This document shows, in pieces, positions 17,463-64,000 of a stretch of 64,000 nt of DNA (its first letter is position 1; every line of letters begins with the position of its first letter). Location of the stretch: assembly GCA_020632075.1 (NCBI GenBank), contig JACKGH010000002.1, positions 11,454-75,453 on the forward strand, given 5' to 3'. The position numbers and the translations under genes were made by a program. A model generated the notes under the pieces. It worked only from the letters and a program-made list of their open reading frames with translations. It was not told where the DNA came from and did no database searches. The DNA comes from Candidatus Nomurabacteria bacterium. Its GTDB lineage: Bacteria > Patescibacteriota > Minisyncoccia > Phycocordibacterales > UBA918.

Positions 17463-17819
17463 ATGCTCAACACAAGATCACAGACACACTTCAGACAGTC
17501 ACTGCTTCTCGCAGCGATCTTGTTGTTTCCAATGACACTACAGGCAGAGACGGTCATCTCAAACTCTATCTCTGTTAGTGCCGACAACGGTACAAGCCAG
17601 GCCACAGTACAGACAGTGGTCAATGGTGAGACAATCGTAGACTGGACGGAAACAAGTAGTTCATCGATCTCGTATAGCGAGACGACGGTAGATCCTTCGA
17701 ACTCAATTACCAACACCACCGAAACAGCTGACGCGTCGGTCGAGCGCGCTCAGCTTGAGATGCTTCTCAAGCAATTACAAAAGCTAATTTCTCTATATGT
17801 CACGCTCACTACCCTTTAA
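17463..17819 (+). CDS. Small secreted Ser/Thr-rich protein
   Basis: Start refined to the ATG preceded by GAGGGA (MLNTRSQTHFRQSLLLAAILLFPMTLQAETV, a signal peptide). The longer ORF-track start lies inside the attenuator hairpins. Confidence 0.5.
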   Translation: MLNTRSQTHFRQSLLLAAILLFPMTLQAETVISNSISVSADNGTSQATVQTVVNGETIVDWTETSSSSISYSETTVDPSNSITNTTETADASVERAQLEMLLKQLQKLISLYVTLTTL

Positions 17820-36228: not shown

Positions 36229-37662
36229 TCACGAAACATCCTTCGCCACACTTTTCACAAACTGCACCATCTCCTTCTGCACCCTCAATGCGTCTTTCTT
36301 TTTCTTCGATTCAAACATCATCTTGATCGCAAACTCCGTCACACTCGGCTTCACCATCCCCCACACCTCACCAAAGTCGACAAGGTAGCCGTCAAACTTC
36401 TTGAGCGACTTTGGTTTGAGTGACTTCAGATACTGTTCAGTCTTCGCCAGCGCCACCTCTTTGCTTTTCACCATCACAATCGTGTCTTCGGTCTGTTCGT
36501 ACTCAAGATGCGGTGCCATCATCTCACTAAAAGTCTTTCCTCCTTTCTTCGCTTCGGCGTAGGCATCAAGCACCGCCAGCAGCGTGAGCGTCACCGAGTC
36601 AGTGTAGAAATAATCCTTAAAGTAGAAATGCCCTGAGTGCTCAGCTGCAAAGAGCACGTCTCTCTTGCGCATACTTTCCTTAATAAACGCGTGTCCCACG
36701 CGCATAAGGACCGGCTTGCCACCAGCCTGCTTAACCGCTTCTTCAAAGCTCCGGCTCGTGAGACCAGTGATACCGATCTTCGCTTTTGGCTGACGCTTTA
36801 AGAATTGTTCTGCGATCAGTCCACCAATCACCGCGCTATTGATGTAGCGACCGTTTTCATCGAGAAACGCGATGCGATCAGAGTCTCCATCAAACGCCAC
36901 GCCGAAATCATATTTCTTTTTCTGCAATCGATCGCGGAGTGGCTTCTGATGATCATACAGCGTCGGGTCAGAACCGCGATTTGGGAAGCTGCCATCGAGC
37001 TTGCCGAACATCACATCAAACTTAGCTGGGAGCTTCTCCTGAAGGAGCGGCAGCAGTACACTCGCCATACCGTTACCAGCATCGGCAGCGATCTTGATCC
37101 CATCGAGTTTCTTGGCTTGATAACCCTTCAGTACAAACTTCTGATACGCTTTGAGCACATTCTTGCTCGTTACCTTGCCGCGCTTTGCAGCGTCAATGAA
37201 TTTCCCTCGCTCAATCCGCCGACGAATGGCACCGAGACCATACTTCTCGGTGAGCGGGATCGCTTGTGCATGTACGAGCTTGAGACCGTTGTACTGCTTC
37301 GGACTGTGTGAGGCGGTGATCATAACACCCGGTAAGTTCATGGTGCCAGAAGCAAAATAGAGTGCTGGTGTATGCACTTGTCCAAGGTCGATCACATCAG
37401 CTCCAGAATCGGTCGCACCTTTCACAAAAGCAGCATGAAGTGCTGGTGTCGACAAGCGCATATCTCGGGCTACGAGGACTTTCTTGTATTTAAACTCTTC
37501 CACAAACGCACGGGCCACAAAATATACCAACTCATCATCAATTTCAGTTGGATAGATCGCACGGATATCAGCATCCTTAAAGGCTCGTTTGTAGTCTGCT
37601 TGTAGTGTCATTGTCATATGCGAGTAGTATACCGTACCCAACATACTAAAAAGCAGGTCCAT
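36229..37662 (-). CDS. Phosphomannomutase/phosphoglucomutase (alpha-D-phosphohexomutase)
   Basis: Active-site ITASHSP, metal site GVAFDGDSDR, and the four-domain length. Confidence 0.9.
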   Translation of the reverse strand: MDLLFSMLGTVYYSHMTMTLQADYKRAFKDADIRAIYPTEIDDELVYFVARAFVEEFKYKKVLVARDMRLSTPALHAAFVKGATDSGADVIDLGQVHTPALYFASGTMNLPGVMITASHSPKQYNGLKLVHAQAIPLTEKYGLGAIRRRIERGKFIDAAKRGKVTSKNVLKAYQKFVLKGYQAKKLDGIKIAADAGNGMASVLLPLLQEKLPAKFDVMFGKLDGSFPNRGSDPTLYDHQKPLRDRLQKKKYDFGVAFDGDSDRIAFLDENGRYINSAVIGGLIAEQFLKRQPKAKIGITGLTSRSFEEAVKQAGGKPVLMRVGHAFIKESMRKRDVLFAAEHSGHFYFKDYFYTDSVTLTLLAVLDAYAEAKKGGKTFSEMMAPHLEYEQTEDTIVMVKSKEVALAKTEQYLKSLKPKSLKKFDGYLVDFGEVWGMVKPSVTEFAIKMMFESKKKKDALRVQKEMVQFVKSVAKDVS

Positions 37663-39901: not shown

Positions 39902-41464
39902 CTACTGCCCCAGCTGATATAGCATTTCCACCTCCTTTGCAGATAGTGCTCGATTGTAAATACGAATATCATCAAGATCACCATCCAGTGCGCCAAATCC
40001 GTTGTACAGGCTACCAATAGATACTTCACCCGTAAAACTAGCTGGGTCTGTACTGAGAGTATCGGTTGTTACCGCATCATCAACATAGAATGTAATAGTC
40101 CAATTACCCGAACTACCGGTACGAACCGCAGCAAAAAAATGCCAGTCTGTATCAGTGACCACAGTACCAGCAGTTGCGTAACTTGAAACATTATTATTCT
40201 GTACCCAATCAAAGGTACCGTCTGTATACCCAAAGAGCAGCTGAAATCTACCCGTTGGCTGCAGTGTGGTTCCACTATGCACAATACCTTGTGTGCTTGT
40301 GAGATTGTCGGTCCTTATCCAACCAGCAATACTCATTTCTCCGGAGAGATCCAACTCCGTCGGTAAACCGAGATCAATTGTGTCGTCAGAGCCATCAAAA
40401 CCCATCGCCTGCCCTAGCTTACCCGGCGTAACAGACCGCGTACTCATCCCACCCTGCGCATCACCATCATTACCATTGCCACTCACATCCTCAATTTCAG
40501 CCGTCGAACTACTCCAGTCAACATCCGGTCCATCGAAGGTCCAGTGGCCGACGAGACCGGTTTGGAGAGAGTCAGGACCAGTTAGGGTGGAAGCCACTTT
40601 CACCCCTTCATTCATACTGTAAAGCTGTTTGACCTCGGTGAAGGAAAGTGTGTGATTGTAAAAATGAAAATCATCTACTGACCCTTTGAAATAATTACCT
40701 GGTGTCCAACGTGAACCGATAGAAAAATAATTAGTTGAGAAGGTGCCACCAAAAGTCTTGTCTTGATACCCAATGTAACTACCATCCACGTATATACGAG
40801 CACGGACTTGGGTTCCATTTATCTGTTCTGAAGTAAAGATAACGTGGTGCCAAGCACCATCCGCCGGAACAACTCCGCTTCCTGTTGTGTACGGAGAGCC
40901 TGAAAATGGATAAAAGTGCAACCTCTCGGTTGACTGTTCAAAGTATACCAACCACAGACCACACCCCTGCCCTTCAAACAATGCCCCGGTTGAAAAATCA
41001 CTATCAGCTTTTATCCACAGAGCAGTCGATCGGTCTCTACTACAACTTTCACTGATCGATCCACTCTTTACCTGATTACTACCCTCAAAGTACATAGCCT
41101 GGCCTATCACTCCCACGACTGGAGAGGTGGTTGCGCTCATTCCTAAAAGCGCGTTCGCATTATTGCTGTTGCCACTTGCATCTTTGACCTCAGAACCTGT
41201 ATCGTTCCAATTAACATCTGGTCCGTCGAAGGTGTAGTGAAGTACGAGACTGTCATTGAGAGAGTTGTTGAAAGGTGTGGTGGAGGTTCTTAGTGTTGCA
41301 GAGACAAAGTTTTGCAGTGGACCAAGCAGCAGATACACCCCTCCTGCCAACAGCATTAAAATAAGCAAATACTTGCCATAGGAAACGGAGCGCGGATCGA
41401 AATCTGCTTGAGTAGACATGGTGGAATTATAGCAGATGGCCGGCGCCCGAAGGGCGCCGGTCAT
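39902..41464 (-). CDS. Secreted/membrane-anchored protein with two LamG-like (concanavalin A-like lectin) domains
   Basis: Two homologous halves (LVLHYTFDGPDVNWNDTGSEVKDASGNSNNA... and LVGHWTFDGPDVDWSSSTAEIEDVSGNGNDG...) of Laminin_G_3 type. N-terminal signal anchor. Confidence 0.65.
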   Translation of the reverse strand: MTGALRAPAICYNSTMSTQADFDPRSVSYGKYLLILMLLAGGVYLLLGPLQNFVSATLRTSTTPFNNSLNDSLVLHYTFDGPDVNWNDTGSEVKDASGNSNNANALLGMSATTSPVVGVIGQAMYFEGSNQVKSGSISESCSRDRSTALWIKADSDFSTGALFEGQGCGLWLVYFEQSTERLHFYPFSGSPYTTGSGVVPADGAWHHVIFTSEQINGTQVRARIYVDGSYIGYQDKTFGGTFSTNYFSIGSRWTPGNYFKGSVDDFHFYNHTLSFTEVKQLYSMNEGVKVASTLTGPDSLQTGLVGHWTFDGPDVDWSSSTAEIEDVSGNGNDGDAQGGMSTRSVTPGKLGQAMGFDGSDDTIDLGLPTELDLSGEMSIAGWIRTDNLTSTQGIVHSGTTLQPTGRFQLLFGYTDGTFDWVQNNNVSSYATAGTVVTDTDWHFFAAVRTGSSGNWTITFYVDDAVTTDTLSTDPASFTGEVSIGSLYNGFGALDGDLDDIRIYNRALSAKEVEMLYQLGQ

Positions 41465-41467
41465 CTG

Positions 41468-41956
41468 CTACTTCAGGTAACTATCAAAATAGATCGCATG
41501 GCAGGTATAACCGCCTGGGTTCTTCTCCAGATAATCCTGATGATACTCTTCAGCCGGCCAGAAGCGCCGCAGCGGCTCGAGGGTGGTCACCACCGGATCA
41601 GGCCAGCGCTCTGACTCATTTACAACATTGATCATTTCTTCAGCGATCCTCTTCTCTTCATCATTCGCATAGAAGATCGCCGACCGATATGAAGTGCCAC
41701 GGTCATTGCCCTGCTGATTGAATGTGGTTGGATTGTGGATCTGGAAGAAGAAATCCAGGAGGTGTTTGTAGTCAATCTTTTCAGGATCGTACTCGATCTC
41801 TACCGCCTCGGCATGGCCGGGGTGATGCTCATACGTCGGATTATCATTTTCTCCCCCACAGTACCCCACTTCTGTATTCACCACCCCCGATTGGGTGCGG
41901 ATTAAGTCTTCGAGTCCCCAAAAGCAGCCTCCGGCCAAAACACTTTTCTTTGTCAT
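41468..41956 (-). CDS. msrA: Peptide methionine (S)-S-oxide reductase
   Basis: [12 protein letters not shown] active site, GYCGG, and [11 protein letters not shown]. Confidence 0.9.
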
Positions 41957-44857: not shown

Positions 44858-45598
44858 TTAACCGATCGGTCTGATCTCAATATAGCGCTGCTTCCAGGCC
44901 CGTTTGAATTTATCGACGGTGAGCGAACCGCCCCCCGTGGGCTCAGCCGGATCGTTGTAGTACACGAGTCCGTCTTGCACTGCTGTCACCACTACTAGAT
45001 GTGGGATCGGATTTGTTGGTTCAAAAGTGTAGTGGACAGACGCCAAGACTGGACCTTCACGAACCACGTCAGCAAATGACGCAAACGCTTCTGCTACACT
45101 GAGCCCTGCCAGACTAACACTTGAACCAGCGAGTCCGTACGGTCGAGCTAAGTCAATGAGTCCCGCGTGGGTCCAACCCGCATCAGAAAGAAATGATCCG
45201 GCTGCGATCCCTTTTGCTAAAAGTACATCAGGCACCGGCGTCAATTCAGAATAGTAATCAATAACCATCGCGACACTTGCTATCCCGCATGAGACCTTTT
45301 TCCATTCTGGAGCAGTGATGTCTGTAAATTGTGAATAAAATGGCACCTCAGGAACTGGTGTGACTGGTTCTGTAATTGAAACTTCTGCAATTGTCTCAAC
45401 CGGCGGCACCTCAGCTACTTGAAGCGGCTGCACACCAACTGTCATGTATGAGCCGATCAGCTCCGCCGGTGGAACTTCAGGCACAGACACAAAAACAGCT
45501 GCGCCATACAATGCGCCAGCTAATGCTACCAAAAGAACGGATATTCTTTCTGATCTCAAAACAGCGCCAGTGTAGCGCGACCTAAAATATAGACACAA
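44858..45598 (-). CDS. Peptidase C39-like (papain-fold) domain protein, membrane-anchored
   Basis: SCGIASVAMVIDYY resembles the C39_2 catalytic Cys region, with a downstream His (HLVVVTA). Confidence 0.55.
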   Translation of the reverse strand: MCLYFRSRYTGAVLRSERISVLLVALAGALYGAAVFVSVPEVPPAELIGSYMTVGVQPLQVAEVPPVETIAEVSITEPVTPVPEVPFYSQFTDITAPEWKKVSCGIASVAMVIDYYSELTPVPDVLLAKGIAAGSFLSDAGWTHAGLIDLARPYGLAGSSVSLAGLSVAEAFASFADVVREGPVLASVHYTFEPTNPIPHLVVVTAVQDGLVYYNDPAEPTGGGSLTVDKFKRAWKQRYIEIRPIG

Positions 45599-45613
45599 GC
45601 AACTTACTATTGC

Positions 45614-46552
45614 TTAATCTTTTACGATCACCGTTGTACCCAATTCAGCCCAGTTATACAGCGTATGTGCAGTGTCTGGCGGAAGATTGACACAGCCATG
45701 AGAATATTGTGAACCAAAACTATTGTGCCAATACGCTCCATGGATCACTGCCCCACCCTCAGTAAAATACAAATTCCAAGGTACTCCGGGCAGATCATAT
45801 ACTTGTTGATCGATCAGATTTGGAAGCGGACCCTGCATGTAGCGACTTGGCGTTTTTTTGTAGATCGTAAAAGTCCCTCGCGGTGTCGGAGTAAGTTCCA
45901 ATCCGGTTGAAATATTAGCTTCCATGAACAATTCACTCCCCTCAAACGCATAGAGTTTTTGCTCTGATCGATCGACTGTGATCACTTTCTGCGTACTCGT
46001 TGAGTAGTCATGTTCCCAGATGGTCTTATCACCCTCATCAAGCAAGACCTTTACGTAGTCAGCTGAAATGTACCAATCTCCCTGCAACCGTTCTGGATAG
46101 CGCAACCATTCGTCGAAGACGATCTTGTACCAGGTCGAACTCGCATGTTCGACCATACCACCCACCTTGAGCACTACCCCATTACGGACACTTGCCACAA
46201 CTGGATACTCCGGACCAGGACCAGAACGTACCCGCAAGCACTCACCTTCAAAATGAGGACCACAACTGTCGAGCACTTCGACATATTCAAAGAGCACCCG
46301 TTCGATCGGTAATAATACTGGTGCCGCATCTGTCGAGGTAGCTTCGATGACCACCACTTCTTCTGATCCTAAAAATGGCGAATCAGGAGCAGCAAAGTCA
46401 TCTAAATAGACGATCGGTGATGTAGAACTGTTCGTATCAGTCTGTGACGACCCCCAAAAACCACCTACCTTGAATAACACAGCAAGCAGAAAGAGTACCA
46501 ATACTGAAAGTATGAAAATAGTTCGATTCGCCTGTCGTTCAGAAAGCGGCAT
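45614..46552 (-). CDS. L,D-transpeptidase (YkuD domain) with an N-terminal SH3-like region
   Basis: Catalytic HGAYWHNSFGSQYSHGCVNL motif and an N-terminal transmembrane anchor. Confidence 0.8.
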   Translation of the reverse strand: MPLSERQANRTIFILSVLVLFLLAVLFKVGGFWGSSQTDTNSSTSPIVYLDDFAAPDSPFLGSEEVVVIEATSTDAAPVLLPIERVLFEYVEVLDSCGPHFEGECLRVRSGPGPEYPVVASVRNGVVLKVGGMVEHASSTWYKIVFDEWLRYPERLQGDWYISADYVKVLLDEGDKTIWEHDYSTSTQKVITVDRSEQKLYAFEGSELFMEANISTGLELTPTPRGTFTIYKKTPSRYMQGPLPNLIDQQVYDLPGVPWNLYFTEGGAVIHGAYWHNSFGSQYSHGCVNLPPDTAHTLYNWAELGTTVIVKD

Positions 46553-50620: not shown

Positions 50621-51304
50621 TTATCTAATACCACAGTGCTGCACGTACTTGCTGGCGATTTTTTGCAGCTCCAAGAACTCTTCATTACTGTAGGTAGTCT
50701 TCCGCATAAAGGCAGGATTTAAGAGCTTTGTTGGTACAAACCGCTGCAAGTAGTAGTGCTCAGCGCCCTCGATCTCTTTTGCGATCTCTTCGATCTCTTC
50801 TGGCGACAGCAATGACTTAACCACCGTAGTACGAAACTCATATGGCACTCGACCCTCAAGCAGCAAAGCTCTGGTTTCCCGTATCGCGTCCACATCAACT
50901 GGCCTGGTCACAGTTGCGGAGTACTTAGAGAGCGGAGCCTTAGCATCAACCGCCACATAATCGACCATACCCTCGGCCACTGCAACAGTGACCACATCAG
51001 GCCGGGTGCCGTTCGTATCAAGCTTTACCTTGAACCCCATTGATTTGATCTGGAAGATAAAATCCAAGAGATCGTCATGCATGGTCGGTTCGCCACCAGT
51101 GATCGTTACTGCATCGAGCTTACCACGACGCTTCACCAAGAAATCGAAGAATGACTCAGTCGAGAGCTCGGTTGCAGTCTCCTCTACCAGCTCTGGATTG
51201 TGGCAGTACGGACAACGGAAATTACACCCGATCGTAAAGACGATAGCAGAGATGTGGTCTGGATAATCAATGATAGAACATTGTTGTAAGCCACCTAAGC
51301 GCAT
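50621..51304 (-). CDS. nrdG: Anaerobic ribonucleoside-triphosphate reductase activating protein (radical SAM)
   Basis: GCNFRCPYCHN radical-SAM CxxxCxxC motif. Confidence 0.9.
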   Translation of the reverse strand: MRLGGLQQCSIIDYPDHISAIVFTIGCNFRCPYCHNPELVEETATELSTESFFDFLVKRRGKLDAVTITGGEPTMHDDLLDFIFQIKSMGFKVKLDTNGTRPDVVTVAVAEGMVDYVAVDAKAPLSKYSATVTRPVDVDAIRETRALLLEGRVPYEFRTTVVKSLLSPEEIEEIAKEIEGAEHYYLQRFVPTKLLNPAFMRKTTYSNEEFLELQKIASKYVQHCGIR

Positions 51305-53451
51305 GATACATGCTCGGTCTTGGTTATAGCATCATGGTCTTTGGCGATGGTCTCTCGAAGCTCAAACTCTGCCTTTTTACCGTCATTCCACTGCTCAACT
51401 GGTCGCAAGTACCCGACGATCCGCGAGTACACCTCACACTGCTCATGACAATCTGGACACACCAGCACCTCGCCCGGCAAGTAGCCATGGTTCTTACATA
51501 CACTAAAGGTCGGCGATATGGTGAAGTACGGCAAGCGATACTGTTCGCAGATGCGCTTCACCAGACTCTTGATGGTGTTTGGATTATCAACCCGCTCTCC
51601 GAGGAAGAAGTGAATGACGGTACCACCCGTGTACTTAGTCTGTAGTTCATCTTGTAGTTCAAGGATCTCAAACGGATCGTCGCTATGCATGACCGGCAAG
51701 TGCGTGGAATTGGTGTAGAACGGAGCAACCACACTCTTACCGACCCCATTTGCAAACACCATGTCGTCACCAAGCTGCTTCTGATCGATCTTAGCCAAAC
51801 GGTACGAGGTTCCCTCTGCTGGAGTCGCTTCGAGGTTGTAGTTGTTGCCAGTTTCTTCCTGATAGTCAGCTAGACGATCACGCATGAAGTCGAGCACTTC
51901 CTCAGCAAAAGCCTGCCCTGCTTCAGTAGCAATTCCTTCTCCAAGCAGATTCTGCGCTGCCTCATTCATACCCACCAACCCAATGGTCGAGAAATGATTC
52001 TGCCAGTAGCAACCATTCATTTCGCGTAACGTAGCTAGATAGTGCTTAGTGTATGGATACAGATTCTTCTCAGTAAGCCCTTCAAGCACTTCACGTTTGA
52101 TCTCCAAACTAGTCTTCGCAATATCCATGAGTTCACCCAGTCGAGCAAGAAACTGCTTCTTGGTCTTTGCGTTGTAGGCAATGCGCGGCAGGTTCATGGT
52201 CACCACGCCGATCGAACCAGTGAGCGGATTGGCACCAAAGAGTCCACCACCGCGCTTCTGTAATTCGCGATTATCGATACGAAGCCTGCAACACATCGAA
52301 CGAGCGTCGTCAGGACTCATGTCAGAATTGATGAAGTTGGAGAAATACGGAATACCATACTTCGCCGCTGCCTCCCAGAGGTGAGTAATATGTTTGTTGT
52401 CCCAATCAAAGTCAGCGGTGATGTTATAGGTTGGAATTGGAAACGTAAAGACCCGTCCGGTTGCATCCCCCTCACACATCACCTCAAGAAAGGCTTGATT
52501 GAGCATGTCCATTTCGCGCTGGAAGGTGGCATAAGTTTCGTCAGTTGCTTGGCCGCCACGGATTACCTTCATGTTCTTGTAGTGTTCTGGCACCGTGAGG
52601 TCCATTGTGATGTTAGTGAATGGTGTCTGGAACCCGACACGGGTCGGCACATTTACATTGAAGACAAACTCCTGTAATGATTGCTTCACCTCTTCATACG
52701 AAAGGTGGTCGTACCAGATAAATGGCGCCAAGAGTGTATCGAAGTTTGAGAACGCCTGCGCTCCAGCTGCTTCACCCTGCATGGTGTAAAAGAAATTCAC
52801 GATCTGACCAAGCGCAGCGCGGAAGTGTTTTGGTGGCGCACTATGGAGCTTGCCCGGTACACCACCAAAGCCACGCTTCAGAAGATCATACAGATCCCAG
52901 CCGACACAGTAGACAGAGAGTAAGTTGAGGTCATGAAGATGAAAATCTCCGGCTCCGTGCGCGTCACGCACTTCAGCCGGGTAGATCTTATCAAGCCAGT
53001 AGGTGCGACTGATCTCAGACGCGACATGATTGTTGAGTCCTTGGAGCGAAAACTCCATATTGCTATTTTCCTTCACCGTCCAGTCTGACTTACCAAGATA
53101 ACTATCGACAAGATCGATCGTTTCAGTACTGACCATTCGGCGAATGTGCGCATGCTGCTCACGATACAAGATATATGCCTTGGCGGTCTTGAAGTACTCT
53201 AGTTCCATGAGCACACGCTCAACAATGTCCTGTACTCCTTCGACAGTTGGTATCGGATCAGTTGGGGTTGCGCTCGCGGTGATCTCTTTTACCGCTTGCT
53301 TCGTGGCCTTACTCAGGTCGCGCTTGTTAAATTCTCCGGTCGCCCGCATTGCTTTTTCAATGGCCCGCGAAATCTTGCGCTGGTCAAAGGCTTTTATTGA
53401 TCCATCTCGCTTAACAATGTGGGTGACGGCTGCAGTCACCTCTTTGCTCAT
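51295..53451 (-). CDS. nrdD: Anaerobic ribonucleoside-triphosphate reductase (class III)
   Basis: ATP-cone N-terminus, C-terminal CPDCH Zn ribbon and the glycyl-radical motif RIVGYLRPV. Confidence 0.95.
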   Translation of the reverse strand: MSKEVTAAVTHIVKRDGSIKAFDQRKISRAIEKAMRATGEFNKRDLSKATKQAVKEITASATPTDPIPTVEGVQDIVERVLMELEYFKTAKAYILYREQHAHIRRMVSTETIDLVDSYLGKSDWTVKENSNMEFSLQGLNNHVASEISRTYWLDKIYPAEVRDAHGAGDFHLHDLNLLSVYCVGWDLYDLLKRGFGGVPGKLHSAPPKHFRAALGQIVNFFYTMQGEAAGAQAFSNFDTLLAPFIWYDHLSYEEVKQSLQEFVFNVNVPTRVGFQTPFTNITMDLTVPEHYKNMKVIRGGQATDETYATFQREMDMLNQAFLEVMCEGDATGRVFTFPIPTYNITADFDWDNKHITHLWEAAAKYGIPYFSNFINSDMSPDDARSMCCRLRIDNRELQKRGGGLFGANPLTGSIGVVTMNLPRIAYNAKTKKQFLARLGELMDIAKTSLEIKREVLEGLTEKNLYPYTKHYLATLREMNGCYWQNHFSTIGLVGMNEAAQNLLGEGIATEAGQAFAEEVLDFMRDRLADYQEETGNNYNLEATPAEGTSYRLAKIDQKQLGDDMVFANGVGKSVVAPFYTNSTHLPVMHSDDPFEILELQDELQTKYTGGTVIHFFLGERVDNPNTIKSLVKRICEQYRLPYFTISPTFSVCKNHGYLPGEVLVCPDCHEQCEVYSRIVGYLRPVEQWNDGKKAEFELRETIAKDHDAITKTEHVSCA

Positions 53452-55387: not shown

Positions 55388-55589
55388 AACAAGAAGACAC
55401 TTATAGTTATTAATTACTTCTGGAGATGCGCACCAGGCGCCTTAATCACTTTTGATAGTAACATCCACCTGTAAAACAGTCCACTTATTTACTCATCAAG
55501 ATGCACTCCAACTATACATTACGTCTCTTTTGACTTTACCCTCTGATTGATCTACGATGCGAAGAGAGGCAAAACTCACGGAGGGTCAC

Positions 55590-56135
55590 ATGACCGCAAC
55601 GATCGACCTTGTTCTACTAGGTCTTGAGCATACAATCCAGCCGTATGTACCGCGACTTGAAGTGAAGACACTGCTGCTTGATTTCAGCGACACGCACGGC
55701 ATGTGCTCAGAGACCATGATCCATAAGCGCATGTTGATCGACAGTCTGTTTGGTGACGGACCAAAAAGATACAACCTACAGACCTATACCAAGATACGTC
55801 TGGTCAAACGTCGACCAATGAGTCCAACCAACGCGCACTTACGATTGCGTGAAGACATGATCGCGACAAAGGTGCGCCAATATCGAGGGAATGATCTCTA
55901 TGCTCTCTCACTCAAGGAATTCCTAGAGCGTGTACGCGCCGTGCCAAGATCAGACTACAACTTCTGGACGATCAACAGCACACTGCCGGCGATTGCGTAT
56001 CTCGAAGCCCTCACAGGTCAAAACCTTTGGGCCATACCCCTGATCGGTGGAGGACTTCACAGACACCTTGAGTACGGCGACCCATTCAGCAAGACCATGA
56101 TCATTCCGATCGAGTTCATCCAAGAACATCAATAG
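55590..56135 (+). CDS. Hypothetical protein
   Basis: Start refined to MTATIDL, which has GGAGGG upstream. A terminator follows at 56137-56165. Confidence 0.45.
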   Translation: MTATIDLVLLGLEHTIQPYVPRLEVKTLLLDFSDTHGMCSETMIHKRMLIDSLFGDGPKRYNLQTYTKIRLVKRRPMSPTNAHLRLREDMIATKVRQYRGNDLYALSLKEFLERVRAVPRSDYNFWTINSTLPAIAYLEALTGQNLWAIPLIGGGLHRHLEYGDPFSKTMIIPIEFIQEHQ

Positions 56136-56785: not shown

Positions 56786-58372
56786 CTATCGATTCAAACT
56801 TTCAAGAATTAAGATGATCTCTTCCTCTCGAAGTGGAACCCACGGTGAGTTGTCAGGGTTTGAGGCAGCTGCTGCTGGACTCTGTCCCTGATTCCACCAC
56901 TTAGCGTAGTAGGCAGCACCTTCAAAGAGCACTCGGTCACCCGCATCATAAATGCGCATACCAGACCAGGTCGGATACGTTCCAGCTGGAAGGGTCGGTC
57001 GCTCTACCGGACGATCAGTCGCTAGAACTGGACCGATCAGCATCCATGGTGTCTCCCAGGCCTGTAGCACTGGGTTATCTGGTAGATCATTCTTGGTCCA
57101 CCACTTTGCTTCATACACATTGCCGTGCCACACCACCTTTGTCCCCTTGAGATAGGTTCCGGTCTCTTTCCAGATCTGATACGGACTCGTTTCTGGATCA
57201 TCTTCCACATGCACATTGGTGCGCGGATCTTCGACCGTCAGCATCTTTGCATTCTGCATCAGGTCACCGTCGAAGCCAGCGCCAAGAGCAAGTGAAAACG
57301 CATACGGTGACGCCGTCACGCCACTACAACGATCAGACACCACTTTCACATCAACATAGTTCTCTCCACACGGAATGTCACGATTGGCAGACCATATCGA
57401 CATGCGGCCAACCCCCTGCTCAAGCGCAAACGTATTAAAAGAAACAGCATCTTCGAGAGTGAAGACCTCACCGAGCACATCATTCTGACCGATCATCGGA
57501 GTCGCTCCGAGCTTCTGCCAGACCGTTGCACCATCTTGATACGTCCCGGATTGTTCATACAAAATACCGAGCTGGCGGTGAGTTTCAATGAGTGCCTTGC
57601 GAGACGCTTCATACATTGAATCATTCTCGTCTCGACTACCACCATAGTCCATCGTCATTACGTTCACTCCAGCAATATCTACTCCACCTGCGAGCATGAG
57701 TGCCACCGCGTCAGTACCAGCAGTGGTCAAACCTTGTGGCGCAACCGGCAGGGTCAGCCAGATCGCCAAGTCCTTTTCAGCAGCCCGATACTCTTGCTGC
57801 AGCTGAGCGATCGCTGCAGCACGTCGTTTTGCCGCCTCGAGATCGGTCAACCCCTCGTTTTCAAGATCAAGATCGATCGTATTCACACTGTACCGCTCGA
57901 TCACAGCACGGTATGCATCAGCTAGTGCAGCTTCATCGAGACATTTGAGGGCTAGTTCGGAATTAAGCGCCCCTCCAAACGAGACAGCGATCCGACCACC
58001 GCGCTGCTGAAAACGAGCAATACGTCGATCAAGATCAAGCGAAACCGCTGCTTCATCTAAGGTGTAGTACCCTCCCCAAGTCGGCACACACGGATCATCA
58101 TGGGAAGACACGATGAATGACAAGACCGCATCTGAAGACTCCATACCACCGCGCTGTTCAAAGTCATAGGTTGGCAGTGAGGTGACATCAACATAACCCG
58201 CAAACCACGGAAGATGATCTTCATTTAGCACTTCTTCCTGCCACTTAGCAAAACTCTGGGTTGTACCATATCCAACACCACCAATGATCGCCAAGACAAT
58301 AGCGAGTCGCACGATCGACAATCGCTTTCGGGTCTGTGTCTGTACTACTGAAGCTCCTCCTTCCATATGCAA
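56786..58372 (-). CDS. GH18-like (chitinase-fold) protein with two C-terminal CBM5/12 chitin-binding modules
   Basis: Signal anchor. TIM-barrel cues (FAGYVDV, VSFGGA, NTIDLDLENEG as a DxDxE-like catalytic motif, MTMDYG). Two W...G..Y.A.WW.....P modules (WHGNVYEAKWWTKNDLPDNP and LFEGAAYYAKWWNQGQSP). Confidence 0.65.
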   Translation of the reverse strand: MHMEGGASVVQTQTRKRLSIVRLAIVLAIIGGVGYGTTQSFAKWQEEVLNEDHLPWFAGYVDVTSLPTYDFEQRGGMESSDAVLSFIVSSHDDPCVPTWGGYYTLDEAAVSLDLDRRIARFQQRGGRIAVSFGGALNSELALKCLDEAALADAYRAVIERYSVNTIDLDLENEGLTDLEAAKRRAAAIAQLQQEYRAAEKDLAIWLTLPVAPQGLTTAGTDAVALMLAGGVDIAGVNVMTMDYGGSRDENDSMYEASRKALIETHRQLGILYEQSGTYQDGATVWQKLGATPMIGQNDVLGEVFTLEDAVSFNTFALEQGVGRMSIWSANRDIPCGENYVDVKVVSDRCSGVTASPYAFSLALGAGFDGDLMQNAKMLTVEDPRTNVHVEDDPETSPYQIWKETGTYLKGTKVVWHGNVYEAKWWTKNDLPDNPVLQAWETPWMLIGPVLATDRPVERPTLPAGTYPTWSGMRIYDAGDRVLFEGAAYYAKWWNQGQSPAAAASNPDNSPWVPLREEEIILILESLNR

Positions 58373-58373
58373 A

Positions 58374-60644
58374 TTAATTACCCTCGCTTACTAACCCTCG
58401 CTTCATGCCAAATCGAGGCCAATTCCAAGAACGCTTCTTGGTCGGTGTTACCGGCACTTCGACATATAGTACATCAACTAGTGCCAACCAAAGATCGACG
58501 ATCATATTCTTGACCCCAATATACGCAACGATCGCCCACATAGCCGCAAACGCATTGAAACCAGCGAACGCAGCATTGCCCCAGTTCTGCCCCTCAATGT
58601 TACGCCACAAGGTAAAGAGTGAAAAGATGACGATCGCCAATGGTGCAATGAGATAGAGCCAATTGGTCGCAGTGCGATTCTTCACTTTTGGTGTACGGGC
58701 AAATGGGATCTTTTTGGTAGTGATCGCTTGCTGCAACGACTTCAGTGTACCTGCGATGTTGACCGGAAGCAGAATGAGATTGAAACCGTAGATACGGAAG
58801 ATGTCAGTGTAATTATAGCGACAGTACTTGAGATCCATCGACATTGCAATGAAGTACGGTGCAGCAGCCAACAACACTAACGGACTCAACAGTCGTCCAT
58901 CGTATGGGTACGCCAAAAGAAAAACGAGACCAGCGCTCGACCAAGCGATCGATACCATGTAGTTGGTGCGGATCAAGAACTCAAGCTTCGACATCGGCCG
59001 ACCTTCGTGCTTACGCTTATGACGCAGCTTTAAAAGTTTCGGAAAGATAAGTAACCCACCATTTGCCCACCGCAATCGCTGTACCACCAAAGAGCCGAAG
59101 TCGGGCGGCGTCGCGCTATAACTCAGACGCTCCGGATAATTAACCAGCCGCCAGTCATGGAGTGCCATGTCAATACTCGACTCAGTATCTTCGATCACGG
59201 TGTGGTCTTGGACATAGCGCTTCACTTCAAACCCACCGACAAATTCTGTCTCAACAATATCCTCAAGCGCTCGCTTGCGGATCACTGCATTAGCGCCCAC
59301 CCAAAAGGTTGCCCCGTAGTGACTCATCCCCTGATGAATGATGTGTTGGATATCAGTGGTCGCGCCCGACAGTCGCTCAAGGCGAGATGGTGCACCTCGG
59401 AACGATGAGTATGGAGTCTGTACCACTGCTACATCGGCATTGTTTGGCTGTTCAAGGAAATGTACCAACCGAGCACAGTATCCACGAAGCAATACCGAGT
59501 CAGCATCCAATGTCAAAATGAAATCAGTATCCCTGATCACGAGATCGGCTTCGTCTGCTTTATTGGTCTTCATCAGGATCGTTCCTTCTGCGGTCTGTTC
59601 TTTGTGGTACATACCGCCCATGAGACCAATATACGCATTGAGGTTCATCGCCTTGTTTCGCTCGTGTGAGAGTGAGATGTATCGCTTACGCTCAAAGAGA
59701 CTCACCTTGGCCTGGAAGATCCAGACGAGTCGGTTACACAATTGCTCTACACGACTCTTCGTAAACTGCACACCACCATCACGCAACGCCAGCTGTTCTC
59801 GCCCGGCAGCGCGAAGCTCCCCAGCAAGTTCACACAAGACCTGGTCCGCAAAGAACATGTCTACATGATCTTCGATCACTTCGATCTTAGCTGTATGCTC
59901 TAACCAATCTGCGGTCCATTCATACTGCGCCACAATGCGCTCGATGGCTTTCTTGTCTCCTTTGAAATTCGTCTTCTCTAACTCAGTTCGAAGTGCCATT
60001 GCAGCAGCGAGCGGTTCAGACAAGAGCGCTTCGATCTCAGCACCAAGCTGCAATGTCTGCTCGATGCGCTCTTTGTGCTCTGGTCGTACACGAAACGGCT
60101 CATCGTCAAGCAGTAGTACGACATTGAGATCTGGATGTTCCTGGAGTGCCGCTGAAAGCAAGGTCTTTCTGATCACCTGCACCTCTTCACTATACGAAGG
60201 CACAAGCACAGTGATCGATGAACGATGCGTCGCAAAGTGTTCGTCCAGTACGCGCTGTGGTGCACGCATATGTTTTTTAAAACTCTGGAGCGCACCTTGT
60301 CGGGTGATGAGATAGATAAGTGCGGACAATGTAAGAAAGGTCACGATCGTCGAATAACCCACCACTTCGGCCGTGAACTGGTAATCCTGCGGGCCATCAA
60401 TGAGCTGACGGATGATCACATCGGTAATGTACATAAGCCAAAACACGATCGTCAGCACAATGGCAATGCGGCTGTACGCAATCACAAAATTCGTCGGCTT
60501 GTCGTGCATATATGAAAGTGGCACCACGTTCTTCTCCGAACCCCACTGACGCTTAAACGAACACCGTTCAAGGCTCTTTCCTTTACTCTTTTTCTTACTG
60601 CGAAACATGTTCATAATTTGTATTTCCACCACCACATTAAGCAA
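58374..60644 (-). CDS. Family-2 processive beta-glycosyltransferase (cellulose/chitin/hyaluronan-synthase-like)
   Basis: Transmembrane helices on both sides of a cytoplasmic GT-A domain containing LLLDDEP, LTLDADS, TEDTESS and QRLRWANGG (the D, DxD, TED, QxxRW set). Confidence 0.8.
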   Translation of the reverse strand: MLNVVVEIQIMNMFRSKKKSKGKSLERCSFKRQWGSEKNVVPLSYMHDKPTNFVIAYSRIAIVLTIVFWLMYITDVIIRQLIDGPQDYQFTAEVVGYSTIVTFLTLSALIYLITRQGALQSFKKHMRAPQRVLDEHFATHRSSITVLVPSYSEEVQVIRKTLLSAALQEHPDLNVVLLLDDEPFRVRPEHKERIEQTLQLGAEIEALLSEPLAAAMALRTELEKTNFKGDKKAIERIVAQYEWTADWLEHTAKIEVIEDHVDMFFADQVLCELAGELRAAGREQLALRDGGVQFTKSRVEQLCNRLVWIFQAKVSLFERKRYISLSHERNKAMNLNAYIGLMGGMYHKEQTAEGTILMKTNKADEADLVIRDTDFILTLDADSVLLRGYCARLVHFLEQPNNADVAVVQTPYSSFRGAPSRLERLSGATTDIQHIIHQGMSHYGATFWVGANAVIRKRALEDIVETEFVGGFEVKRYVQDHTVIEDTESSIDMALHDWRLVNYPERLSYSATPPDFGSLVVQRLRWANGGLLIFPKLLKLRHKRKHEGRPMSKLEFLIRTNYMVSIAWSSAGLVFLLAYPYDGRLLSPLVLLAAAPYFIAMSMDLKYCRYNYTDIFRIYGFNLILLPVNIAGTLKSLQQAITTKKIPFARTPKVKNRTATNWLYLIAPLAIVIFSLFTLWRNIEGQNWGNAAFAGFNAFAAMWAIVAYIGVKNMIVDLWLALVDVLYVEVPVTPTKKRSWNWPRFGMKRGLVSEGN

Positions 60645-60745
60645 AACCGCACCGTATCAAAGTGATACAAAAGTGCGGTGTTCTTGGTGTTAATTTATAA
60701 CATTATGTGCAGTTTTGTCAAACTCTTTAGGGTATAGGCTTGATC

Positions 60746-62464
60746 CTATCCAAAGGTGAATGTATACGCTCTAAATCCAGGCTCTACCTTCAATCTCAAC
60801 TCATGCGTGCCATACTCATCACTAGTGTAAATGTGATACATGCGTTCCTCTGACACCATCAACTTCTCCTCTGCCACATCAGCTCCAGCTTGATCGAGTG
60901 AGATCGGTTGGCCATCAAGGTACACTTCAGCAACATTCTCCAAACCAGACCCAAGGACCATGTAGACATTTTTCGCGGTAAAGGTGTATACCAATTCCCC
61001 AGCACTTCGTGTCTCGGCATACTCCGAAGTAATGTTCCAGGTACCATCAAGATACAACTGGTCAGCGGAAAAGGTGGTAGGTAACGAAAGTGTCTGCACA
61101 CCGCCCTCGTGTTTCGTACCATTTCCGAGATACTCATTGCGCTTAGAACCAAAGTACACCTCAGGACTGCCAACCGACGCAAAATCGACAGCTGTGACAC
61201 CGACCACGCCACCCACTGTCTGTGCTGAAGTTTTACCGAGCTGGGCCAGAGCAGCTTGAATTTCTGCTTCAGTCTCGTCGTAAGCACCCTCACCAATGTG
61301 GTCGTAGATGATCTGTCCCTTCTCGTTGATCAAGTATTTTCGCGGCCAAAACTTATTCCCAAACGCCCGCCAGGTCGAGTAGTCATTATCAAGCACCACG
61401 GGGTACTTGATCCCAAAATCAGCGATTGCTTGCTCTACGTTGCTGGTCTGTTGTTCAAATGCAAACTCCGGTGTATGCACCCCAACGATCTCCAAACCCT
61501 GATCGTGATACCGTTCATACCAAGTATTCAAGTATGGCAGCGTGCGACGACAGTTGATACAGCTGTACGTCCAAAAATCTACCAGTACGATCTTTTCGCC
61601 TTGAAATTGCTCTAGAGTAATTGGTTCATTACTGGTATTTAGATACGCACTGATGCCAGCAAGCTCTGGGGCCTGTGGCCCGGTCGGTGCATCCGCGCTA
61701 TCTTTCAGCGCACCGACCGGGCCCATATCGTCAGGCATGTCGGTTTTCTCGAGCAATCGTTGCTCGATCTTGGTCACATCAAAGAAACCTGAATCCAAGA
61801 TCGCTGTCTCCAGCTGTTTATCGAGACCAGAGATGATCGCAAAGCCAACCAACGCGATCAGTACACCCATCCCGCGCTTTACCCAACCGCGCGGATCAGC
61901 TGCGCCAGAGAGACGACCAACCAACTTCTGCCCAAGGAGCGCGATCAAGACCAGCACCAGCGCCAAGCCTAGTGTGTACGAGAACAAGTACACCATCCCG
62001 AGTGCAAACGACGACGGCAGTACAGTCGCCAAGATCACAAAGTATGTAGGAGAGCAGGTTGAGAACACCGGTCCAAGCGCCGCTCCCATAATGACATCAC
62101 CCCACACACTATTTTGCTTACTACCTTTGTTCAACAGCACTTGTGATCGACTGTTGAGAATGGCGTTGAATTTAAGACCTTCCCACAGCGAGGGAAAGAT
62201 CAACACAATTCCAAGCACCAACAAAATACCGCCAGAAAACCATTTCCAGAATGCAGGTGGAATGTCGATCACGAGCGTCGTCGCCTTAAGTAGCAAAGTA
62301 AAGACGATCACCGACAACGCCAGTGAAGCGGTGATAATGTACGGCTTCCACCGATTACCGTGATCGGTCGCTGAGCCACCGATCACAACCGGCAAAAGCG
62401 GTAAAATGCAAGGCGCCAAGACAGTGAGTGCGCCAGCGATAAATGAGATAAGTAGTAACGTCAT
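60746..62464 (-). CDS. CcdA/DsbD-family disulfide-reductant membrane transporter fused to a thioredoxin-like (TlpA/ResA-type) domain and a C-terminal extracytoplasmic domain
   Basis: N-terminal 6-transmembrane domain with CILPLLP and Cys-containing helices. Redoxin domain with the WTYSCINC CxxC motif. Confidence 0.8.
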   Translation of the reverse strand: MTLLLISFIAGALTVLAPCILPLLPVVIGGSATDHGNRWKPYIITASLALSVIVFTLLLKATTLVIDIPPAFWKWFSGGILLVLGIVLIFPSLWEGLKFNAILNSRSQVLLNKGSKQNSVWGDVIMGAALGPVFSTCSPTYFVILATVLPSSFALGMVYLFSYTLGLALVLVLIALLGQKLVGRLSGAADPRGWVKRGMGVLIALVGFAIISGLDKQLETAILDSGFFDVTKIEQRLLEKTDMPDDMGPVGALKDSADAPTGPQAPELAGISAYLNTSNEPITLEQFQGEKIVLVDFWTYSCINCRRTLPYLNTWYERYHDQGLEIVGVHTPEFAFEQQTSNVEQAIADFGIKYPVVLDNDYSTWRAFGNKFWPRKYLINEKGQIIYDHIGEGAYDETEAEIQAALAQLGKTSAQTVGGVVGVTAVDFASVGSPEVYFGSKRNEYLGNGTKHEGGVQTLSLPTTFSADQLYLDGTWNITSEYAETRSAGELVYTFTAKNVYMVLGSGLENVAEVYLDGQPISLDQAGADVAEEKLMVSEERMYHIYTSDEYGTHELRLKVEPGFRAYTFTFG

Positions 62465-62467
62465 AAG

Positions 62468-63061
62468 CTAAATGGTCTGACTCGCCACTGCTGCAGCGCT
62501 GGCGCTACCGGTCCACTTCTTCAGCAGATTGCCATTAGCATCAACTTGAACAAACGTATGCTGCACCGTCACACCGTATTTCTTCTTGAGTTCAGTCTGT
62601 GTATCAAAATCAAGCTTGAGGATCGCCAACCCATCAGGAACACCCGTTGACCTGATACTCGCATCTGCTGCACGACAGGTCGGGCACCACGAAGCATGGA
62701 AGAATAGCACTACATCACCGCTGTTTGCGAGCGCGAGTTTATCTGCCGTGTACGCCTCATACGTACCATGCAAAACGTTGCTGTCCGCTTCCATCATCGC
62801 ATCAGCACCCTCCATCATTACTCCTGCCTCTTCCATCATCGCACCAGATTCCTCCATCATGACACCGTCTGGTACACCGGGTTCTTCTTGCATCATCATT
62901 GCTCCTTCCGCCTCTTCACTCTCTTCCATCATCGCGCTCTCGCTCATAGTAGCTTCCATACTTTCATCAGTGTCCTGAAGCAACCACCAACCGCCAATAC
63001 CCGCCACGACCAGCACCGCCACGATGATCAACATTGTTTTATTGTTTTGATTGTTTTCCAT
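62468..63061 (-). CDS. Membrane-anchored thioredoxin-like protein with a Met/Glu-rich (MMEE)n linker
   Basis: Transmembrane anchor. Tract MSESAMMEESEEAEGAMMMQEE...MMEESGAMMEEAGVMMEGADAMMEAD. C-terminal thioredoxin fold with WCPTC. Confidence 0.7.
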   Translation of the reverse strand: MENNQNNKTMLIIVAVLVVAGIGGWWLLQDTDESMEATMSESAMMEESEEAEGAMMMQEEPGVPDGVMMEESGAMMEEAGVMMEGADAMMEADSNVLHGTYEAYTADKLALANSGDVVLFFHASWCPTCRAADASIRSTGVPDGLAILKLDFDTQTELKKKYGVTVQHTFVQVDANGNLLKKWTGSASAAAVASQTI

Positions 63062-63086
63062 ATATTTATTTTTACTCTTGACTCAC

Positions 63087-64000
63087 CTACTCAGTAAATA
63101 AGTAGAGATAGTCTTGATAACCCTCCCTCGTCATTTCAGTCTGCGACACAAAACGTAGCGCGCCGGAATTGATGCAATAACGCTTCCCACCATGTTCTGT
63201 CGGACCATCGTTGAAAATATGTCCGAGGTGACCTCCCCCACTCCGAACCTCGGTCCGTACTAATCCATAAGTTGTATCCGGCAATTCTGAGACCGGCGCA
63301 CCCGTGATGGTCTGATAGAAGCTCGGCCAGCCAGTTCCGGAATCATATTTGTTGGTTGAGGAAAACAGCGGATCACCCGTCACCACATCGACATAAATGC
63401 CCGCCTCATGATTGTCCCAGTACGCATTCTTAAATGCCGGTTCAGTGCCATTTTCAGCAACAATATGATAGGCGCTAGCATCGAGGGCTTTTTGCAAAAC
63501 AACGATCTCTTCCGCAGTGTAGGTCTGAGGCGTCCACACAGTTGTATCTGTACTACTTGTTTCTAGGGAGTCAGTCACATCCATCCCCTCCTCACTCAAA
63601 AAGTACAGCGCCGCATCCTTAGCCCATGTCTCTTCCACAAAGCCAGCACGACCCGAAGCTCTCTTATATCGTTGATAATGATCAGCGGCCTTTTTGTAAT
63701 AATCCTGATGATACTCTTCTGCTTTAAAGAAAGTCGTAAAAGGAAGGATCTCAGTGACGATCGGTTTATCAAATAGACCACTAGTACCAAGACGCTGCTT
63801 AGAATCCTCAGCGATCTGCCGCTCAGTGTCATTACTGTAAAAGATGGCAGTACGATACTGTGAACCGCGATCTGCGAACTGACCACCATCGTCGGTCGGG
63901 TCGATGTGGCCCCAATACACATCCAAGATCTCTTTGAACGAAATACGAACCGGATCAAATGTCACTTGCACCGCTTCTCGGTGACCAGTCTTACCCCGCG
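63087..64000 (-). CDS. msrAB: Bifunctional methionine sulfoxide reductase MsrA-MsrB fusion, 5' partial: the N-terminus lies beyond the window end
   Basis: The MsrA part continues past 64000 (...TGHREAVQVTFDPVRISFKEILDVYWGHIDPT). The MsrB part has GIYVDVVTGDPLFSS, GWPSF, and HLGHIFNDGP...RYCINS. Confidence 0.85.
   Translation of the reverse strand, partial: RGKTGHREAVQVTFDPVRISFKEILDVYWGHIDPTDDGGQFADRGSQYRTAIFYSNDTERQIAEDSKQRLGTSGLFDKPIVTEILPFTTFFKAEEYHQDYYKKAADHYQRYKRASGRAGFVEETWAKDAALYFLSEEGMDVTDSLETSSTDTTVWTPQTYTAEEIVVLQKALDASAYHIVAENGTEPAFKNAYWDNHEAGIYVDVVTGDPLFSSTNKYDSGTGWPSFYQTITGAPVSELPDTTYGLVRTEVRSGGGHLGHIFNDGPTEHGGKRYCINSGALRFVSQTEMTREGYQDYLYLFTE

Follow-up and report, generated by a model that had tools for sequence, protein, structure and literature searches.

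What do two adjacent bacterial genes make, when one encodes a membrane glycan synthase and the other a protein of the chitinase type? The question is raised by a locus of a Candidatus Nomurabacteria bacterium, carried on a 64,000-nt stretch of contig JACKGH010000002.1 (assembly GCA_020632075.1) that is called the window here and whose numbering is used for all coordinates. Two minus-strand open reading frames (ORFs) fill positions 56786-60644: the gene for a family 2 glycosyltransferase (GT2) comes first and, 7 nt beyond it, the gene for a protein of glycoside hydrolase family 18 (GH18) with two CBM5/12 modules. The original prediction, made from the letters of the window, had placed two such ORFs at this interval, where both are found, and had proposed that they form a pair for the synthesis and remodeling of a polymer of N-acetylglucosamine (GlcNAc). 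That proposal is supported by the adjacency of the genes in all 81 loci of a set of close relatives, by the congruence of their trees, by a natural fusion of the two proteins, and by the polysaccharide deacetylases (CE4) found among relatives of the synthase. Judged from these data, the two genes probably constitute a self-contained module, a synthase and its cognate hydrolase, for a chitin-like (β-1,4-GlcNAc) surface glycan; that the product contains GlcNAc in some form is very likely. Synthase-dependent polysaccharide systems do encode product-specific enzymes of this kind, such as BcsZ, PgaB, AlgL, PelA and PslG, and KORRIGAN in plants.

Linkage of the two genes across bacteria

Both proteins have thousands of homologues, and the best 120 of each are 60-80% identical, carry Patescibacteria labels and come from contigs whose lengths agree between the two sets. 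One genome per species was scanned (568 GT2 relatives), and the best 80 loci, whose GT2s are 54-80% identical to that of the window, were combined with the window itself to give a set of 81. In 81/81 of these loci a GH18 gene is the immediate neighbor of the GT2 gene, which argues that the pairing is not a matter of chance. The carriers come from four phyla: Patescibacteria (Saccharibacteria, Moraniibacteriota, Collier-, Woese- and Dojkabacteria, and WWE3), Actinomycetota (many Microbacteriaceae and Micrococcaceae, including Leifsonia, Curtobacterium, Cryobacterium, Frigoribacterium, Herbiconiux, Arthrobacter, Microbacterium and others), Bacillota (Paenisporosarcina), and one Ktedonobacteria metagenome-assembled genome (MAG). 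The partner gene is downstream and co-directional in most loci, and upstream and divergent in loci of the Arthrobacter type. No third conserved neighbor was seen in the compared loci, among which those of high GC content gave spurious clusters of antisense ORFs.

The two genes have also co-evolved. Neighbor-joining trees of the GT2 and GH18 proteins are broadly congruent, and the GC content of the genes follows that of the host, from 0.33 to 0.70. Recent horizontal transfer into this genome was considered and rejected, since the GC content of the genes equals that of the locus and the window falls within a Patescibacteria clade of the trees. Wherever the taxonomic label of a host is reliable, the host is a single-membrane bacterium, and this would account for the lack of an outer-membrane export component beside the pair. 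Six MAGs labeled as uncultured Bdellovibrionales, Gammaproteobacteria or Pseudomonadales (L004, L005, L008, L009, L014 and L027) carry the pair as well, at 59-68% identity and with low GC content; because they nest inside Patescibacteria clades in both gene trees, these labels look doubtful.

The most direct link is a metagenomic protein of 1345 aa (P0247), in which GT2, linker, anchor helix, GH18 and two CBMs form one chain that is 42% identical to the window's GH18 protein over 501 aa. The segment that anchors the separate partner is, in this fusion, the joint between GT2 and GH18. Such a chain requires that the C-terminus of the GT2 be cytosolic, and this matches the modeled topology of the window enzyme. 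A synthase and a hydrolase that are encoded together and co-inherited are the mark of a synthase-dependent exopolysaccharide system, and adjacency, trees and fusion all display it here. The GT2 and GH18 genes are functionally linked.

Farther from the window enzyme, the linkage changes. A family search through 1.84 billion representatives returned 2085 GT2 relatives, 476 of them below 1e-30. Members at 41-49% identity retain the CBM5/12 partner. In a sister subfamily from soil and sediment metagenomes (L086-L165; 37-44% identity) the GH18 partner is absent from 79/80 loci, and neighbors of other kinds are found: an adjacent CE4 deacetylase in 11/79 loci, MBOAT (an AlgI-like O-acyltransferase) in 5, and a PMT_2 glycosyltransferase in 7. 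The catalytic motifs of this subfamily are the same (QRRRWANGG, VIEDTES, FWVGANA, LDADS, NKAMNLN and RTPK), and its product may be a related polymer that is processed in another way. Two members at 33-34% identity stand alone, without a GH18 partner.

Several relatives carry additional domains. CE4 is fused to the GT2 in P0265 and in P0356 (where it is PgaB/IcaB-like, 170 bits), one long relative bears a DMFA2_C domain (like the β-subunit of N,N-dimethylformamidase), and three others (P0244, P0251 and P0252) end in an EAL domain. At the locus of P0251 (L166, 3247-8027, GCA_052038585.1, 75.5% GC), this EAL-bearing GT2 is 48% identical to that of the window, the GH18 partner (45% identity) is divergently transcribed, and a PAS histidine kinase and two response regulators (RR-HDOD and RR-HD_5) flank the genes. 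The EAL fusion together with these signaling neighbors suggests that the GT2-GH18 module is under cyclic di-GMP (c-di-GMP) control outside the Candidate Phyla Radiation (CPR). Taken as a whole, the CE4 and EAL domains of the wider family point to N-acetylated polymers and to control of the exopolysaccharide type. For the window itself, the original prediction had proposed a search for a PilZ domain and a deacetylase nearby: PilZ, GGDEF/EAL and CE4 domains are all absent from the GT2 and from the window (~55 of 62 ORFs scanned, the remaining ORFs being <110 aa), so that the sign of c-di-GMP control is confined to those relatives to which EAL is fused.

The GT2 protein and its GH18 partner

The GT2 gene (58374..60608, minus strand) encodes a predicted processive membrane glycan synthase of 744 aa that is 100% identical to MCA9354553.1, a protein recorded as "glycosyltransferase" from a Candidatus Kaiserbacteria MAG. 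The multi-spanning GT2 of 756 aa that was first described is the product of the maximal ORF (58374-60644), read from a TTG; the deposited start lies at M13 (ATG at 60608), which gives the true length of 744 aa. The expected set of D, DxD, TED and QxxRW motifs is present, except that "TED" literally reads IED. The first catalytic aspartate is D168, within LLLDD (744-aa numbering). D368-A-D370 (59499..59507, minus strand), which an invariant S371 follows, aligns to the DxD of the cellulose synthase BcsA; I472-E473-D474 (59187..59195, minus strand) aligns to its TED, the region of the catalytic base; and Q510-R-L-R-W514 (59067..59081, minus strand) is the QxxRW. These catalytic motifs are invariant in 81/81 orthologues, save that the last reads QRRRW in 78/81. 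Q397-T-P-Y, F435-W-V-G-A and the longer I472-E-D474-T-E are likewise invariant in the 81. In addition, F-A-R-T-P-K (aa 636-641; 58686..58703, minus strand) has F636, R638, T639, P640 and K641 invariant in 81/81 orthologues. It falls in a loop (631-649) that is modeled as non-helical, cytosolic and situated between transmembrane (TM) helices, and that presumably resembles the FxVTxK gating loop of cellulose synthases.

The AlphaFold2 (AF2) model of the GT2, built on a 53-sequence family alignment, is a confident one (pLDDT 91, pTM 0.90). In it, a pair of TM helices at the N-terminus precedes the cytosolic GT-A domain; QxxRW is followed by interface helices, and about four further TM helices lie toward the C-terminus. 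Hydropathy agrees on the number of TM helices at either end. When the model was compared with the PDB using Foldseek, BcsA and the plant cellulose synthase CesA came first (E=1e-13 to 1e-9, query-normalized TM-score [TMq] ~0.5; BcsA 3.5e-13 over 718-733 columns), and were followed by hyaluronan synthase (HAS; 1e-8, target-normalized TM-score [TMt] up to 0.63), cyclic β-1,2-glucan synthase (1e-5) and chitin synthases (CHS; 1e-5 to 1e-3). The alignments to processive synthases span ~660-830 columns each, and soluble or non-processive GT2s are reached only at E>5e-3. Given the confidence of the model and the ranking of BcsA, CesA, HAS and CHS above the non-processive enzymes, the GT2 is, as modeled, a processive, channel-forming membrane synthase that lies outside any named synthase family. 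The processive class assigned to it at the outset therefore holds, as there is no clustering with non-processive polyprenyl-phosphate transferases and the matches to the processive synthases extend over ~700 columns.

One feature of the GT-A domain is a helical insert between D168 and the DxD (aa 176-298; 59715..60083, minus strand), modeled as helices H176-212, H219-242, H248-277 and H284-298. It is conserved across the GT2 family, and the invariant motif FERKRY.NLSHE.NKAMNLN comes after it. The insert is outside all Pfam GT2 models, and a PDB search with it gave only weak coiled-coil matches. We take it to occupy the place of the plant-conserved region (P-CR) of CesA, which also lies between the first D and DxD; the likeness is one of position. 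CesA yields the highest query-normalized TM-scores to the window GT2 (~0.50-0.52), and in KORRIGAN it too has a membrane-anchored hydrolase beside the synthase. However, the zinc finger and the class-specific region (CSR) of CesA are both absent from the GT2.

The partner gene (56786..58366, minus strand) encodes a protein of 526 aa, identical (100%) to MCA9354554.1, whose label is "glycosyl hydrolase family 18"; the maximal ORF (56786-58372) has 528 aa, and the deposited start gives 526. Its catalytic DxDxE (IDLDLE; D165-L-D167-L-E169; 57860..57874, minus strand) is complete and aligns with the DFDIE of solved chitinases. This motif is invariant in 80/80 GH18 orthologues, as are the MxMDY-type and SxWSxNRD motifs, and the alternative that the domain is a lectin thus falls away, with the catalytic acid itself among the invariant residues. 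A phmmer comparison matched the partner to S. venezuelae chitinase 1 (9buf; 1.5e-49) and to the P. furiosus chitinase domain (2dsk; 5e-21), and a Foldseek search with its AF2 model gave TMt values of 0.88-0.90 (0.90 to 9buf), the top 50 matches all being chitinases. Accordingly, the catalytic domain is homologous to those of Streptomyces Chi01/chitinase 1 and Pyrococcus/Thermococcus ChiA (36% identity, TMt 0.90), with which the partner has in common the DxDxE, MxMDY and WSxxRD motifs as well as chitin-binding modules. Unlike these enzymes, which are secreted and catabolic, it appears to be anchored and is genetically locked to a synthase. By its sequence the partner is a true chitinase-type GH18, which keeps the catalytic acid and belongs to a subfamily of proven chitinases, and is predicted to be active.

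Two CBM5/12 modules follow the catalytic domain. The first (~aa 398-431, YEAKWW; 57074..57175, minus strand) was found by Pfam and matches the chitin-binding domain of chitinase C (2d49), with W422 and W423 invariant. The second (~aa 466-507, YYAKWW; 56846..56971, minus strand) is the best Pfam CBM_5_12 stretch and has A488, K489 and W490 invariant. PF02839 (CBM_5_12) scores 39 bits against a cut-off of 26.2, over two stretches, and the aromatic pair of AKWW is conserved in both. The original description of a secreted GH18-fold protein with two CBM5/12 modules is correct as to fold and modules. However, hydropathy shows what looks like a signal-anchor at the N-terminus (aa 16-34; 58265..58321, minus strand), so "secreted" may really mean membrane-anchored. 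The anchor, a basic and then a hydrophobic segment, is conserved among partner orthologues (kept in 24), and the protein is probably held in the membrane and not free.

The product and the competing explanations

If the two proteins act together, the GT2 would span the cytoplasmic membrane, its GT-A domain facing the cytosol, and would accept a UDP-sugar, presumably UDP-GlcNAc, which is already made for peptidoglycan. Residues would be added singly to the non-reducing end via the DxD, ED and QxxRW residues, and the chain would be extruded through a channel of the enzyme's own TM helices, as by BcsA, HAS and chitin synthases. Outside, the partner, held by its N-terminal anchor and perhaps in contact with the synthase, would grip the emerging chain with its two CBM5/12 modules, and the GH18 DxDxE site would cut, release, length-trim or transglycosylate it, in a manner analogous to BcsZ, KORRIGAN, PgaB and AlgL. 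The glycan may serve as wall or matrix material, in adhesion, or in host attachment by episymbiotic CPR lineages.

Hydrolysis by GH18 enzymes is substrate-assisted and requires a 2-acetamido sugar in subsite -1. The GT2 most likely polymerizes GlcNAc, because it is locked to, and once fused with, an intact anchored chitinase with chitin-binding modules and because its family repeatedly recruits de-N-acetylases. A β-1,4 linkage is argued from the chitinase type of the partner. Precursor supply also counts in favor of a GlcNAc polymer, since glmS (7762-9576) and a PGM/GlmM-like mutase (36229-37662) are both present within the window.

Several observations weigh against a chitin-like product. The sequence of the GT2 itself assigns no UDP-GlcNAc, and its nearest characterized relatives, in both sequence and fold, are glucose polymerases. 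A profile search of the PDB matched it to BcsA at 1e-16 and to the P. sojae chitin synthase at 0.07, leaving BcsA as the only significant sequence match among solved structures, a result that orders the relatives but says nothing about the donor sugar. Because the GT2 is nearest in sequence to cellulose synthases, and not to chitin synthase, NodC, PgaC or HAS enzymes, it is from the partner and not from the GT2 that we infer a GlcNAc product. The loop of the GT2 reads F-x-R-T-x-K, which we regard as cellulose synthase-like, with no obvious WGTR/K motif, and the enzyme has EDT at the position where chitin synthases have EDR. On the partner side, the GH18 protein clears the Pfam cut-off for its family only narrowly (30.3 against 29.6 bits), the AF2 model is of moderate quality (pLDDT 71), and CBM5/12 modules can also bind cellulose. 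Since GT2 relatives at 33-44% identity usually lack a GH18 gene, the idea that the whole family is GH18-linked was rejected, and the family may not be uniform in its product. Finally, no report of a chitin-like polymer was found in the literature searched for the cultured genera that carry the pair.

Nor does the GT2 belong to any named synthase family. Pfam recognizes it by generic GT2 models only (aa 363-588; PF13632, E=2e-32), with no Chitin_synth match; among 53 family members, 21 have weak matches to Chitin_synth_2 (PF03142; best 1.6e-6) and none (0/53) to Cellulose_synt. The models tested included BcsA (TIGR03030 and NF008558), NodC (TIGR04242), chitin synthase (PF03142 and PF01644) and PgaC/IcaA (TIGR03937). 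In NCBIfam the GT2 scores far below every cut-off: 79.6 bits against 699.1 for CelA, 53.8 against 422.3 for PgaC, 38.1 against 992 for BcsA, 21 against 419 for MdoH, and 16.1 against 550 for NodC. The profile models proposed for an assignment to BcsA, NodC or PgaC thus supply a ranking (CelA, then PgaC, then NodC), but with all scores too low for membership.

These scores leave room for other products. The GT2 might make a different GlcNAc polymer, namely β-1,6-linked poly-N-acetylglucosamine (PNAG), a β-1,3-linked GlcNAc chain or a hyaluronan-like heteropolymer, with the GH18 protein cleaving only at GlcNAc positions or mainly binding or transglycosylating the chain. PgaC/IcaA is indeed the second-best curated model, aligned over the catalytic and TM regions (aa 370-649), one relative is fused to a PgaB/IcaB-like deacetylase, and HAS is a good structural match (TMt up to 0.63). 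Moreover, PgaC/IcaA with PgaB/IcaB, and Streptomyces MatAB, resemble the window pair in that each combines a bacterial GT2 synthase of a GlcNAc homopolymer with an extracytoplasmic processing enzyme. However, 53.8 bits is far under the PgaC cut-off of 422, and neither PgaD/IcaD nor a PNAG hydrolase of the GH153 or GH20 type accompanies the pair. In place of a deacetylase or GH153 enzyme, the partner is of the β-1,4-specific chitinase type; it is related most closely to β-1,4 chitinases, and the ligands of CBM5/12 modules are crystalline β-1,4 polymers. The single GT domain, which bears no second-donor signature, also speaks against a heteropolymer. Such a product is therefore unlikely.

Alternatively, the GT2 could be a cellulose-like (β-glucan) synthase whose product is bound by the CBM5/12 modules, while the GH18 domain has a purely structural role or acts on environmental chitin or peptidoglycan-related glycans. 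Among solved proteins, BcsA and CesA come nearest in sequence and fold, CelA is the best-scoring NCBIfam model, QTP(Y/H), KA(M/G)NLN and F-x-(R/V)-T-x-K are cellulose synthase-like motifs, and some CBM5 modules bind cellulose. The BcsA-BcsZ system is also alike in its membrane-integrated processive GT2 with D, DxD, (T)ED and QxxRW and its own translocation channel, and in an operon logic that joins the synthase to a product-specific glycoside hydrolase. However, the GT2 scores ~9-fold under the CelA cut-off, and it has an invariant FWVGA in place of FFCGS, an invariant Ser in place of His after DxD, and, unlike BcsA, the ~120-aa helical insert between D and DxD. Pfam detects no PilZ domain in it (E<=0.01), the chain ending after the last TM helices, and BcsB, the outer-membrane BcsC and a GH8 or GH6 partner are absent as well; BcsZ is a GH8 enzyme, whereas the window partner is GH18 with CBM5/12. 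The recurrence of CE4 de-N-acetylases in the GT2 family likewise speaks against a glucan. Above all, the invariant retention of a GlcNAc-dependent hydrolase beside the synthase in 80 species, and its fusion in one case, would be hard to explain if it could not cleave the product. A β-glucan is thus improbable.

It is quite improbable that the module makes short, soluble chito-oligosaccharides in the manner of NodC, for signaling or to prime another pathway, with the GH18 protein setting or editing their length. Among well-studied bacterial GT2s, only NodC forms β-1,4-GlcNAc, the hydrolase of the window is tightly coupled to the synthase, and chain length is not readable from sequence. However, the GT2 has the size of a polymer synthase, a full TM channel architecture and a whole-length match to BcsA, CesA and HAS, and two CBM5/12 modules suit an insoluble, crystalline ligand. 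With both NodC and CHS, the GT2 would share its predicted β-1,4-GlcNAc chemistry, the processive GT2 fold (Foldseek 1e-5 to 1e-3 for chitin synthases) and the family consensus QRRRW (78/81). It differs from them in TM topology and in the insert, and it is a member of neither group by sequence (NodC 16 against 550 bits; P. sojae CHS 0.07). In fungi and insects, GH18 chitinases are functionally paired with chitin synthases. The CHS genes that Proteobacteria acquired from eukaryotes (PMC5122149) are unrelated to the window GT2.

The last alternative, that the GH18 protein is a catabolic enzyme for environmental chitin and the GT2 serves an unrelated envelope function, agrees with the listing of GH18 genes of Patescibacteria MAGs as a chitin-degradation trait (PMC9868632) and with the catabolic chitinases that are the partner's nearest solved relatives, but it is hardly credible given the adjacency in 81/81 loci across phyla despite rearranged gene order, the congruent trees and the fused protein, the conserved N-terminal anchor in place of a free secreted form, and the lack of conserved chitin-uptake or catabolic genes nearby.

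A chitin-like β-1,4-GlcNAc glycan accordingly remains the preferred product. A bolder version of this reading, which is offered tentatively, is that a BcsA-like lineage, independent of eukaryotic CHS and of NodC, makes chitin or chitin-like fibrils with a minimal two-gene machine. This module would be ancient, or else passed widely between single-membrane bacteria, and would be particularly frequent in the Patescibacteria, which are ultra-small and depend on hosts; there it could form a wall layer other than peptidoglycan or a structure for attachment. A role like that of the CesA P-CR in oligomerization and fibril formation might then fall to the helical insert.

Surroundings of the pair and its significance

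GC content is flat at ~0.49, both over the whole window and over the GT2-GH18 pair. Upstream of the GT2 gene are genes for extracytoplasmic redox functions and methionine-sulfoxide repair: MsrA/MsrB, a membrane-anchored thioredoxin and a CcdA/DsbD_TM-thioredoxin-Thioredoxin_10 fusion lie directly upstream (60746-63971, minus strand). An additional, stand-alone msrA is present at 41468-41956 (minus strand), and Redoxin and MsrA/MsrB genes are also near a distant GT2 relative (L083), which may be coincidence. Downstream of the pair is a gene for an ITP/XTPase.

The 137-nt gap upstream of the GT2 gene contains a σ70-like promoter match (TTGACA-18-TAAATT, 10/12; 60692..60721, minus strand), which is a consensus match only; such sites are as numerous in the region as expected from shuffling. 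Between this site and the GT2 start is a hairpin (8+6 bp) followed by a UUUU run (60643..60680, minus strand), with a folding energy of -23.7 kcal/mol and z=-3.1. It could either terminate transcription of the upstream redox genes or act as an attenuator in the leader. Neither the hairpin nor the leader upstream of the GT2 gene has a match in Rfam, and a riboswitch was rejected on that ground, as the leader has only the hairpin.

Besides glmS, the original prediction had named murJ and an L,D-transpeptidase as parts of the window, and all three were located: murJ lies at 27197-28861, and the transpeptidase is an SH3_3-YkuD protein (45614-46552, minus strand). It is adjoined by a Peptidase_C39_2-like protein (44858-46552 for the two, minus strand), with which it may form a cell-wall remodeling pair. 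Other putative surface or envelope proteins are a 970-aa DUF11 protein (17797-20709, plus strand), an 858-aa TPR protein immediately upstream of murJ (28871-31447, minus strand), and a 520-aa protein with two Laminin_G_3 (ConA-like lectin) domains (39902-41464, minus strand). The window also encodes an anaerobic ribonucleotide reductase, NrdD (ATP-cone), with its radical-SAM activase (50621-53451, minus strand), which is consistent with an anaerobic or fermentative CPR lifestyle. An ORF of 192 aa (55557-56135, plus strand) has no Pfam or NCBIfam match; the deposited annotation calls a gene of 181 aa there, also without a Pfam match.

To our knowledge, chitin is regarded as a eukaryotic polymer, and the bacterial record consists of NodC oligomers and a handful of CHS genes. 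No description of the GT2-GH18 pair was found in the full-text literature searched, and databases label the two proteins just "glycosyltransferase" and "glycosyl hydrolase family 18/chitinase". The CHS genes known from bacteria belong to a different, eukaryote-derived lineage, were acquired horizontally by a dozen Proteobacteria, and are of untested function (PMC5122149). Within the synthase-dependent glycan systems, the pair combines a GT2 lineage that has no name, a partner of a new type and, probably, a product new for bacteria.

If this is true, a module conserved in Patescibacteria and soil Actinomycetota would constitute an independent bacterial route to a chitin-like polymer. In applied terms, the module would be a compact, two-gene means of producing chitin or chito-oligosaccharides. 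The GH18 genes of Patescibacteria have been read as evidence of chitin catabolism (PMC9868632); the pairing suggests that envelope biosynthesis may instead be the function of CPR GH18 genes that are now scored as "chitin degradation". Finally, the orthologues of cultured bacteria (Arthrobacter, Curtobacterium and Leifsonia), at 55-63% identity, would make this aspect of CPR surface biology experimentally tractable.

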